This document shows positions 41,747-46,228 of a stretch of 64,000 nt of DNA, in pieces; within the stretch, counting starts at the first letter, position 1, and each line of letters opens with the position of its first letter. Under the pieces are notes generated by a model. That model saw only the letters and a list, made by a program, of their open reading frames with translations. It was not told where the DNA came from and searched no databases. Source of the DNA: Akkermansiaceae bacterium (lineage in GTDB: Bacteria > Verrucomicrobiota > Verrucomicrobiia > Verrucomicrobiales > Akkermansiaceae); the NCBI GenBank assembly GCA_025457665.1, contig JALOTY010000005.1, positions 4,316-68,315 on the forward strand, given 5' to 3'. Made by a program: the position numbers and the translations under genes.

Positions 41747-42289
41747 ATGGCGGATCAGGCAAAAGTCACATCGATCGAAGCACTGGAGGATTTCCGATCC
41801 GCCCTGCTGCGCTATCGTGACCGCACGGTCCAGGCCCTGGATGATGTCGGTGGGGAAATCAAGCGGACCCGTGATTGGCTCGCCTATGACCGCCGGATGT
41901 TTTGGGAAGCCGAGGTCAGGCGCGGCCAACGTCGGCTGGAACAGGCGGAGGCGGAACTGATGACCTCCCGTTTCTCCGCCCTCAAGGACGACCATTCCGT
42001 GCAACAACTCGCCGTGAAAAAGGCCCGTCGGATGCTGGAGGAAGCCGAGGCCAAACTGCGCGCGGTGAGGAAATGGTCGAGGGATTTCGATGGCGTGGTC
42101 GAGCCCGCCGCCCGCCCCCTCGAAGCCCTGCGGGAGCGCCTGAGCCATGAGTTTCCCAAAGCCGTCGCCAGCCTGGAACAAATGATCCACGCGCTGGCCG
42201 ACTATTCCGGCCGCTTGCCCGCCCGCGCCACCGCTCCGAAAGCGGGGACCGATGAAGGGAATCCAGCATCGGAAGGAGGCCCCGCATGA
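41747..42289 (+). CDS. Coiled-coil helical protein, first gene of the type VII-like operon
   Basis: All-helical heptad pattern with conserved-looking Trp residues (DWL, FWE, KWS); stop overlaps the next start (ATGA). Confidence 0.75.
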   Translation: MADQAKVTSIEALEDFRSALLRYRDRTVQALDDVGGEIKRTRDWLAYDRRMFWEAEVRRGQRRLEQAEAELMTSRFSALKDDHSVQQLAVKKARRMLEEAEAKLRAVRKWSRDFDGVVEPAARPLEALRERLSHEFPKAVASLEQMIHALADYSGRLPARATAPKAGTDEGNPASEGGPA

Positions 42290-42501
42290 GTGCCGTGGGT
42301 GCAGCCAAGGGGACCGTCAATGACGCCACCCGCGAGCTTCTCGCCAAGTGGGAACGGGCGCGCGAAAGCTGGCGGGATGCCAAGGCGGATGAGTTCGGAC
42401 GGACCTATCTCAGCGGCCTCGGCGAGGAGATTTCCCGCGCCTTGCGGGTGATGGATGAATTGGAGCGATGTCTCGGCAAGATACATGAAGACTGTGAGTG
42501 A
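42286..42501 (+). CDS. WXG100-like small helical-hairpin protein
   Basis: 71 aa, helix-turn-helix with central W29-R-D31 and F37 (WxG...F spacing with D for G); translationally coupled on both sides. Confidence 0.65.
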   Translation: MSAVGAAKGTVNDATRELLAKWERARESWRDAKADEFGRTYLSGLGEEISRALRVMDELERCLGKIHEDCE

Positions 42502-45500: not shown

Positions 45501-46228
45501 GGAAAAATCCTCCCACTCACCCGCCTGAAGTCCCACGCGCCTGGCTCGGTGCGCCGAACTCCATCAAGGGCCCCACCGAAGCCCGTTTCCCAAGGCAAAG
45601 CGGAGCAAACCTGCTGCTGGTGGGACAGGGTGAGGAAAGGATGAAAGCGATGATGGGATCAATCCTGCTTTCCCTCGCCGCCCAGTACCCCGCCGACGCC
45701 GCACGCTTCATCGTCGTCGATTCCGAGGGCACCAAAGCCTATCTCGCCGGGCTCGGCACTGCCATCCCTCAGACACTGGAAACCGTGGCCCCGGCCGAAC
45801 TTGGGCGCGTGATGGGTGAACTCGCCACACGCCTTGCCGCCGGTCACGGAGAAGATGTTTTCCTCCTCATCCGCGATCTCCAGCGCTTCAAGATCCTGCG
45901 GCCGGACGACGAGTTCCGGTTTTCCTTCGATGAGGAAGTCGGCGGGAAACCGGACGCCGGAAAAACCCTGTTAGATCTGCTTTCGGAAGGCCCCGCGGCG
46001 GGCATCCATGTCATCCTGAGTGTGGACAACTGGGCGAATGCCGCCCGCTGGATCCCCCGCAAATCCCTCGCTGATCTGCCCCAGCGCGTGCTCTTCCAGA
46101 TGAGCGCGGCGGATTCCGTTTCCCTGATCGACACTCCGGCAGCCTCGAAGCTCGGCCTCCACCGCGCGCTTTTCCACGATGAGTCGCAAGGCACCCAGGA
46201 ACTCTTCCGCCCCTACGCGAAACCCTGA
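42485..46228 (+). CDS. FtsK/SpoIIIE-family ATPase with EssC/EccC-like architecture
   Basis: Coiled coil, two TM helices, coiled coil, then three P-loop-like domains. The middle one is intact (AGKTGSGKST, LIDFKKGVEF, IIDEFQEFF, GRAFGIHVILGSQ); the first (HGSLLLEG...FTFIDAAG) and third (ANLLLVGQG...GIHVIL) are degenerate. Start ATG 42485 or GTG 42494. Confidence 0.85.
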   Translation: MKTVSDSLDVGRVLEDLGELKRLVEETARREEGAQGALTTCLVAARREAKRKEEIALAAEETKRREMEEILSAQTHALEERHRQRLAWIEARYHAARHSLTDRVNTARDHRVGGVQAEILRQQEERQQVYEQAKLEWAAIHEKANEEKGQLAVLMAEARKWLRSFMPVLGGRLAGRGIEVDATRAGIDAARAELEALKSMLVVKFFRFIPPALLLLAGIIAVAVLSGQAAQPALWWKQAALVAAAVGLLYLVGLAVIAGPTMRLARAMQAVRKSAAHEVQAMRDRVTSLKEEIQRETEQLRGGLSETLRESDDQSQQQLRHGVEKLEKQYARLPAMEQGLHVRRMARLEQKQQVLRDQFAADAEAARKAREAEFDEEAADARKVHDGVMQALAAEWPARIRGLLDRLGGLGEEASRRFPAWDSLDPDQWQVPTTETLATPFGRLELEMAELAPLRPADPRFALPERLVVPLALGFPHHGSLLLEGDSQEAAAAIRAIVLRLLSSQPPGRVGFTFIDAAGLGRDLAGLMHLADYEENLIHGRIWTQPQQIEQRLGELNEHVEKVIQMYLRNEYPTITEYNRMAGTIAERYQFVIVCGFPSGFSDTALSRLRTLAASGSRCGVYLILQSEEPIADSALSTALGEACLRVKKYDAPRTWSIVNHPGRVLLDSPPETAIETRWVHRLGKASVDSNRVEVPFSGIMPAAPWWQGDAGAELRVPIGRTGATKLQELALGKGTRQHVLVAGKTGSGKSTLFHVMITNLALHFSPDEVEFYLIDFKKGVEFQCYGTHRLPHARVVAIESDREFGLSVLRRVDDELRQRGDAFREQGAQDLQGYRKASGRVMPRSLLIIDEFQEFFTEDDGTAQEASLLLDRIVRQGRAFGIHVILGSQTLGGAYTLARATLGQMVIRIALQCNEADAYLIMDDDNPAPRLLTRPGEGIYNDNAGAIANNSPFQTVWLDEKERDELLEKVTVLSAERGIKHAPPVVFEGNAPADLQENALLAELRKNPPTHPPEVPRAWLGAPNSIKGPTEARFPRQSGANLLLVGQGEERMKAMMGSILLSLAAQYPADAARFIVVDSEGTKAYLAGLGTAIPQTLETVAPAELGRVMGELATRLAAGHGEDVFLLIRDLQRFKILRPDDEFRFSFDEEVGGKPDAGKTLLDLLSEGPAAGIHVILSVDNWANAARWIPRKSLADLPQRVLFQMSAADSVSLIDTPAASKLGLHRALFHDESQGTQELFRPYAKP

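Follow-up and report, generated by a model that had tools for sequence, protein, structure and literature searches.

Modules that combine a solo WXG protein with a YueA-like ATPase of three HerA/FtsK domains, of which the middle one is active, were reported from Gram-negative phyla by Zhang et al. 2012 (Biol Direct, PMC3482391). Such modules also appear in Anantharaman et al. 2012 (as cited in PMC11090510) and in Sutcliffe 2011 and Unnikrishnan 2017 (both as cited in PMC10765036). Relatives of the ATPase without transmembrane (TM) helices were found in CoCoNuT/TerY-P defence loci by Bell et al. 2024 (eLife, PMC11090510), where the homologues have N-terminal coiled coils of more than 200 amino acids (aa) and a different mechanism was judged likely for the TM-less forms. 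The literature reads the module as a mobile or minimal type VII secretion system (T7SS), and no experimental test of its function was found in the searchable literature. We analyzed a stretch of 64,000 nucleotides from an Akkermansiaceae bacterium (contig JALOTY010000005.1, positions 4,316 to 68,315; "the window") that carries three genes of this kind, designated g1 (a coiled-coil protein), g2 (a small helical hairpin) and g3 (the ATPase). Together they make up the g1-g2-ATPase portion of a four-gene cassette conserved in the Planctomycetes-Verrucomicrobia-Chlamydiae (PVC) superphylum. Sequence comparisons make its homology to type VII components very probable. An initial annotation had called the system uncharacterised; this holds experimentally, and in outline the cassette is already described as a kind.

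The three genes are co-oriented, overlapping open reading frames (ORFs) on the plus strand from 41747 to 46228, and the tight coupling first noticed was borne out. The g1/g2 overlap is ATGA, and g2 and g3 overlap by 17 nt from ATG 42485 or by 47 nt counted from the longest ORF. ATG 42485 is the g3 start both in public gene calls and in the relative L111; residue numbers of g3 count from 42455, the beginning of the longest ORF. For comparison, 80 loci were fetched from species-representative genomes (at least 589 exist), and the ORFs of 91 Verrucomicrobiota and Planctomycetota loci were searched with iterated profiles. The ordered quartet of a 90-aa WXG100 gene, g1, g2 and the ATPase gene was found in 75 of these 91, the remainder lying mostly on truncated contigs. 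Because the same gene order recurs in at least 75 other genomes, the trio is not a product of chance.

The fourth gene was located outside the window. A whole-genome Pfam scan for WXG100 gave one match above cut-off, a 90-aa gene on contig C70 that lies 235 bp from a contig end, in convergent orientation to an rmuC-like gene. The turn of its product reads ...LGETWQD..., that is, W-Q-D, and the protein is 70% identical to the linked copy in a same-genus relative and 92% identical to the L111 copy. The family profile matched Helicobacter pylori HP0062 (4.5e-13), Bacillus anthracis EsxB (2e-8) and Staphylococcus aureus EsxA (7e-5) in the PDB. No WXG100 remnant was detected by tblastn upstream of g1, the sole genomic copy being that on C70, and each of the four genes occurs exactly once in the host genome. 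The cassette in this genome is thus split by rearrangement, with the WXG100 gene intact. The locus had been proposed to be a minimal type VII-like operon; the type VII kinship stands, while the trio is not complete but three quarters of a quartet whose WXG100 member lies on C70. A large WXG-toxin substrate was also considered, on a weak PF06013 match in a 1264-aa ORF on contig C114, and was rejected as this ORF encodes SMC.

Two genomes of another Verrucomicrobiota family show a second, independent type of split, in which the ATPase stands behind unrelated genes. In G169 (C193:1812-2741) and G289 (C20:481-1419) the WXG100 gene and a g2-like gene are on a contig other than that of the lone ATPase (L024/L025); a g1-like gene lies between them in G169, and none was detected there in G289. 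Since the parts are all kept after unlinking, both in the host genome and in these two, the four appear to depend on each other.

The ATPase g3 consists of a coiled-coil arm, two TM helices, a further coiled-coil arm, and then a degenerate, an active and a second degenerate FtsK-like module. It has 4405 homologues and matched Pfam FtsK_SpoIIIE at 1e-33. In the PDB it matched Thermomonospora curvata EccC (4nh0, 2.8e-36), EccC5 (6e-24) and Bacillus subtilis YukB (2e-21), as compared to 1.6e-7 for FtsK. The top three NCBIfam models were EccCb (108 bits, 2.9e-31), EccCa (103 bits, 1.6e-29) and EssC (94 bits, 5e-27), against 22 bits (2.6e-5) for FtsK. No gamma domain (PF09397) was found in g3, in agreement with the predicted lack of an FtsK winged-helix end; in the genome this domain was found only in the true FtsK on contig C96 (88 bits). 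By these comparisons g3 groups with the type VII ATPases and not with DNA translocases, as the kinship first proposed would have it, and stands outside the curated EccC/EssC families.

Two TM helices and a Walker A motif intact in the middle module alone had been predicted; the hydropathy scan and the single conserved Walker A/B pair agree with this. A further match to [AG]xxxxGK[ST] at residue 1164 is not conserved and was dismissed as a chance match. The first, D1-like module has IDAAGLGRD at the Walker A site and FVIVCGFP at the Walker B site; it matched Pfam FtsK_SpoIIIE at E 4.6e-4 (20.1 bits, below cut-off), and its profile had no PDB match. The profile of the D3-like module (residues 985-1257) matched EccC5 at 1.4e-3, and 8 of its 9 matches were EccC, FtsK or YukB chains. 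Single-sequence PDB searches with the D1-like and D3-like modules gave no informative match. The degenerate/active/degenerate layout is supported by these results, least so for the first module. The D3-like module is a candidate substrate receptor, by analogy with D3 of EccC.

Both large parts of g3 are cytoplasmic, as in EccC/EssC. The TM hairpin is present in all orthologues with at least 35% identity and absent in the distant paralogues L026-L029. Median lengths in 65 orthologues were 212 aa before the hairpin and 215 aa from the hairpin to D1, near-equal despite sequence conservation of about 20%, which points to a pairing of the arms into a single antiparallel stalk tipped by the TM hairpin. 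The N-terminal arm gave weak coiled-coil-type matches to LeoBC and ZorA in PADLOC.

The small protein g2 matched no Pfam, NCBIfam or PADLOC family as a single sequence, and a word-based homologue search returned close relatives only. An alignment of 59 orthologues, taken from ATPase-linked loci, gave the consensus W-x2-T-x3-W-R-D-x-K-A-x-E-F-E...D-C-E, with W29, D31 and the C-terminal Cys C70 invariant and the C-terminal D-C-E conserved. The AlphaFold2 model (mean predicted local distance difference test, pLDDT, 93.9) has helices at 3-26 and 32-70 joined by a turn at 27-31, and W29-R30-D31 falls inside this turn, where the initial annotation had envisaged W-R-D in place of the WXG motif. In a Foldseek search of the PDB the top 12 hits were all WXG100 proteins (template modelling score 0.45-0.73), ten of them at 0.62-0.73 with a root-mean-square deviation of 2.1-2.6 A; the E-values were not significant, as expected for a protein of such length. 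The structure check proposed at the outset thus came out in favour of a WXG100-like hairpin.

Profile searches pointed the same way. The five best PDB matches of the g2 profile were all WXG100 proteins (4lws 0.006, S. aureus EsxA 0.03, HP0062 0.4), and the WXG100 proteins of the distant loci L026 and L027 were matched at 1.6e-5 and 7.8e-5, in a small database. When the g2 and 90-aa families were aligned with hhalign, W-x-D was in register (E 0.003), with a probability of just 10%; BLASTP of g2 against the 90-aa WXG100 protein of the genome gave no alignment. The two are therefore tied together only by profiles and structure. Taken together, these results identify g2 as a shortened and divergent hairpin of the WXG100 type.

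The g1 protein was modelled (AlphaFold2; pLDDT 89.7, predicted template modelling score 0.71) as two antiparallel helices, 7-76 and 83-154, of about 70 residues each and about 100 Å in length, followed by a disordered C-terminal tail rich in Pro, Glu and Ala. W110, L143 and Y153 are invariant, and W44 and W53 nearly so. Foldseek returned generic coiled-coil hairpins only (E at least 0.04), as did the profile search of the PDB (generic coiled coils only), and the single sequence matched no Pfam, NCBIfam or PADLOC family. Membership of WXG100 was considered and rejected, the hhalign comparison with the WXG100 family being not significant. Matches to the coiled-coil-nuclease proteins of L026/L027 (E 0.016-0.06, small database) are at most suggestive, and no nuclease domain was found in g1. 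Judged by its model, g1 is a generic long coiled-coil hairpin; the coiled coil anticipated for the 180-aa protein was recovered and the WXG or LXG fold was not.

A homologue was present in 12 of 301 sampled Verrucomicrobiota genomes, representing 10 of 148 genera. Many small genomes sampled from the same family (genus label g2, 1.7-3.3 Mb) had no orthologue, and a weak partial match was seen in only one of them. In a FastTree phylogeny of 82 ATPases, all 11 Planctomycetota sequences formed one clade (support 99) and the Verrucomicrobiota its sister clade (98). From this the cassette seems to have been passed on mainly by vertical descent and to have been lost often. Bins with the titles Klebsiella, Bifidobacterium, Acidobacteriota, Vulcanimicrobiota and Akkermansia muciniphila (L054, L083, L051, L067, L060, L078, L099) nest inside the Verrucomicrobiota clade; these are probably mis-binned or mislabelled contigs of metagenome-assembled genomes.

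The ATPases of L026-L029 share about 26-30% identity with g3 and have no TM helices. In L026 and L027 the gene order is two vWA genes, WXG100, a 436-442-aa coiled-coil protein, a small protein, an 82-87-aa WXG-like protein, the ATPase, PP2C, a Ser/Thr kinase and a superfamily 1 helicase, and the WXG100 protein of L027 scores above the Pfam cut-off. This gene content matches the published CoCoNuT/TerY-P context (PMC11090510). They share with the cassette of the window a coiled-coil protein after the WXG100 gene and a WXG-like hairpin before the ATPase. A third, TM-less variant was seen twice in one genome (L028 and L029, both G041): a small TM protein, two hairpin-size proteins of 90-113 aa (GWRD/GWDD and SWQDD), a 180-aa coiled-coil protein and a 1255-1269-aa ATPase with a Pro/Ser-rich N-region. 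No Pfam family was matched by the small proteins of L028/L029.

Table 1. Positions of the cassette features in the window (for the 90-aa WXG100 gene, on its own contig) and mean pairwise identity of the parts.
Feature	Position	Strand	Description	Mean pairwise identity
Region 5' of g1	41403..41746	+	intergenic; relatives have the 90-aa WXG100 gene here; promoter presumed	
g1	41747..42289	+	180 aa	37%
g2	42286..42501	+	71 aa	37%
g3	42485..46228	+	1247 aa from ATG 42485; longest ORF 42455-46228 = 1257 aa	
g3, N-terminal cytoplasmic helical arm	42512..43069	+	residues ~20-205; Ala/Glu/Arg/Leu-rich; from composition	21%
g3, TM hairpin	43106..43255	+	TM1 218-236, TM2 249-267; 12-aa periplasmic loop; from hydropathy scan	23%
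g3, second cytoplasmic helical arm/stalk	43292..43744	+	residues ~280-430; Ala/Glu/Arg/Leu-rich; from composition	
g3, arms and TM hairpin				20-23%
g3, D1-like degenerate P-loop module	43772..44569	+	residues 440-705	52%
g3, D2 active FtsK/EssC-type ATPase module	44600..45409	+	residues 716-985	76%
g3, D2 Walker A	44714-44737	+	GKTGSGKS (754-761); sole conserved Walker A of g3	
g3, D2 Walker B	45023-45040	+	LLIIDE (857-862); sole Walker B of g3	
g3, D3-like degenerate module	45422..46225	+	residues 990-1257; LLLVGQGEER at Walker A site	50%
90-aa WXG100 gene	contig C70:6966-7235 (= L007:6966-7235)	-	PF06013 36.2 bits, cut-off 27.3	66%, across two phyla

The host is placed near Haloferula and Luteolibacter in the Verrucomicrobiota, and is a diderm because its genome has Omp85/BamA homologues. 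The 5' side of the locus has dcw genes (MraY, MurD, a LysM protein, FtsW) and two sugar-modifying genes that are divergently transcribed, and glycosyltransferases are among the neighbours; on the 3' side come a 275-aa gene, a gene for a WD40-repeat Ser/Thr kinase, and genes for an ECF sigma factor and an Hsp70-like protein. A promoter scan found no sigma-70 consensus upstream of g1, and terminator-like matches at the locus were at chance level. The Pfam scan of the neighbours revealed no EsaA, EssA, EssB, EccB, MycP, toxin or immunity gene, the absence remarked on in the initial annotation, and none is conserved in 81 loci either.

Directly 3' of g3, on the minus strand from 46254 to 50851, the 275-aa protein has a weak C-terminal PEP-CTERM match, the kinase is 1011 aa long, and the sigma factor is of the ECF type; relatives of the WD40 kinase occur in just 4 of the 81 cassette loci. 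The segment from 50900 to 55746 contains the Hsp70-like gene (582 aa), a gene whose 461-aa product weakly matches DnaJ, and a gene for a dynamin-family GTPase (558 aa, minus strand). This group recalls the DnaK homologue of the H. pylori WXG100 cluster. As cassette partners these three genes were rejected, their adjacency being not conserved in the other genomes (81 loci). When all ORFs of 100 aa or more from the 81 loci were clustered, no further gene family appeared in more than 8 loci, and families at 4-8 loci were mostly frame-shadow ORFs of the cassette.

How might the four proteins work together? By analogy with the T7SS, we would give roughly even odds to the cassette being an inner-membrane type VII-like translocase that exports its own hairpins. 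The ATPase would assemble as a hexamer, anchored in the inner membrane by the TM hairpin. The 90-aa WXG100 protein and g2 would associate into a four-helix bundle like that of EsxA/EsxB, and the conserved C-terminal tails of the bundle may dock on the D3-like module and so switch on ATP hydrolysis by D2. The g1 protein could pack on the coiled-coil arms of the ATPase, as an adaptor or a co-substrate. The helical hairpins would then cross the cytoplasmic membrane to the periplasm through a ring of 12 TM helices; the cassette encodes no outer-membrane step. The earlier suggestion that coiled coils replace the accessory subunits remains, like any export, something that we infer.

Several points weigh against such an exporter. 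Secretion via this module is stated in the literature to be unconfirmed in any Gram-negative bacterium. The canonical export motif YxxxD/E was not seen in the consensus of g2 or of the 90-aa WXG100 protein, and g3 scored far under the equivalog cut-offs (347 bits for EccCb, 509 for EccCa and 778 for EssC). The cassette, as judged from the 81 loci, includes no periplasmic or outer-membrane component. The TM hairpin, in the least conserved part of g3, looks more like an anchor than a gated pore, and if the arms of about 200 aa do pair, the ATPase ring may lie well away from the membrane, in contrast to known T7SS. Finally, the pairing of WXG proteins with such an ATPase need not imply export, because the TM-less CoCoNuT/TerY-P paralogues keep the same WXG partners.

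That last observation leads to the main alternative, possible if somewhat unlikely, a membrane-tethered machine that does not secrete. The WXG hairpins and g1 would here be cytoplasmic regulators or adaptors controlling assembly of the single-motor ATPase, the TM hairpin would merely anchor the stalk, and the motor would work on a cytoplasmic or membrane-proximal client, remodelling or extracting proteins or nucleoprotein, with no dedicated export. The TM-less paralogues, which retain the WXG100 protein, the coiled-coil protein, the second WXG-like protein and the ATPase, and for which the conclusion of Bell et al. (PMC11090510) was that a different mechanism is likely, accord with it, as do the low conservation of TM hairpin and arms (20-23%, compared to 76% for D2 and 66% for the WXG100 protein), the matching arm lengths of 212 and 215 aa and a periplasmic loop of just 12 aa. 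The mean identity of the 90-aa WXG100 protein comes close to that of D2 and is far above that of g1, g2 or the TM hairpin, which would be unusual for a secreted effector or antigen. However, among characterised proteins the closest kin of the ATPase, and of the hairpins too, are components of secretion systems, the membrane anchor is kept in every PVC orthologue, and no gene for a client or effector is conserved nearby in the 81 loci.

It is quite improbable that the cassette is an anti-phage or conflict module. Its paralogous loci L026/L027 do match the CoCoNuT/TerY-P context, PADLOC gave P-loop-level matches to SspH and mad8, and the distribution is patchy (10 of 148 sampled genera). But the conserved neighbours of the PVC cassette include no vWA gene, kinase/phosphatase pair, nuclease, McrBC-like gene or any other gene of defence, and g1 has no nuclease domain. 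One clade per phylum suggests mainly vertical descent and not defence-island mobility; moreover, each genome has a single copy of the cassette, and conservation of its small WXG100 protein is strong. An FtsK/TraB/VirD4-type DNA translocase or conjugative coupling protein that works with small accessory proteins, to which the common FtsK/SpoIIIE P-loop fold and a weak PDB match to a "DNA translocase coupling protein" (7e-9) might point, is scarcely credible given that EccC/EssC scores better by many orders of magnitude, that the gamma/winged-helix domain carried by the genome's own FtsK is missing, that no relaxase, type IV secretion or integrase genes are conserved nearby, and that the partners are of WXG100 type.

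A bolder and rather unlikely form of the exporter reading is an ancient, largely vertically inherited and self-sufficient type VII-like exporter, in which a single protein would be motor, receptor and 12-helix channel, and the hairpins, perhaps with g1, would be delivered to the periplasm for a housekeeping role in the envelope, not for warfare. Were this form true, the cassette would be the simplest working T7-type translocase.

To our knowledge, the definition and study of type VII secretion have been confined to Actinomycetota and Bacillota, and the role of WXG100/FtsK-like pairs in Gram-negatives has been a side question since about 2011. The cassette is small (four genes), self-contained and found in cultivable Haloferula, Luteolibacter, Prosthecobacter and Singulisphaera, which makes it tractable. 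It could tell whether an EssC-like ATPase alone moves folded helical hairpins across a membrane, and whether the ancestral role of WXG100 proteins is a non-secretory one. The window's own addition is modest, one more member, with the twist of a split cassette in which all parts are retained.

Set against the FtsK/SpoIIIE DNA translocases, which have a C-terminal gamma domain (winged-helix, KOPS-binding) and a single alpha/beta motor, g3 lacks the gamma domain and reaches just 22 bits with the FtsK model. The T7SS ATPases are closer: EccC, EssC and YukB, like g3, have two TM helices followed by tandem FtsK-like modules, and they are its best sequence matches, while EsxA and EsxB resemble the cassette hairpins in being WXG100 helical hairpins without signal peptides. 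In g3, however, one module is active, the middle one, and two helical arms of about 200 aa take the place of the FHA (EssC) or DUF (EccC) N-domain. The curated EccC/EssC family models exclude g3. A WXG100 gene is encoded with the ATPase in 75 of 91 loci and is unlinked in the host genome. Neither the accessory components (EccB/D/E/MycP or EsaA/EssA/EssB) nor FHA or DUF N-domains were found, by Pfam in g3 and its neighbours and in the 81 loci. The motif is W-x-D and not W-x-G, and the host is a classical diderm.

The CoCoNuT/TerY-P systems share with the cassette an ATPase active in its central module only, a long N-terminal coiled coil replacing FHA, and two WXG100-type proteins (one without the motif) with a coiled-coil protein between them. 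They differ in having a TM-less ATPase and a D-ExK nuclease domain in the coiled-coil protein. A DNA-mimic-like gene and flanking vWA, kinase, phosphatase and McrBC-like cores are theirs alone, none being in the window or conserved at PVC cassettes. The locus therefore falls outside CoCoNuT Type III-A and TerY-P: these genes are missing from the window, g3 has two TM helices, and g1 is a bare hairpin.

In H. pylori, HP0062 (PDB 3FX7, 2GTS) is the best solved-structure match of the 90-aa protein. Its bend has W-R-D, as in g2, compared to W-Q-D in the 90-aa protein. It is clustered with the FtsK/SpoIIIE protein HP0066, in a diderm, and the cluster was called a "WXG100 secretion system"; unlike the cassette, it includes a DnaK homologue and an HNH nuclease.

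The nearest likeness is to the modules of Zhang et al. 2012, which like the cassette have a solo WXG100 protein, a degenerate/active/degenerate ATPase, a distribution in Verrucomicrobia and Planctomycetes, and no toxin domains. The 90-aa protein is such a solo WXG protein without a toxin domain, g2 being a second, divergent WXG-like hairpin, and the one conserved Walker A/B pair of g3 is in the middle module, the evidence for the first module being the thinnest. Such modules were called "mobile" in the papers, versus the largely vertical tree obtained here. To that one-line account the present analysis adds the four-gene make-up, the TM hairpin between two arms, the separate clade in each phylum and the split of the cassette.

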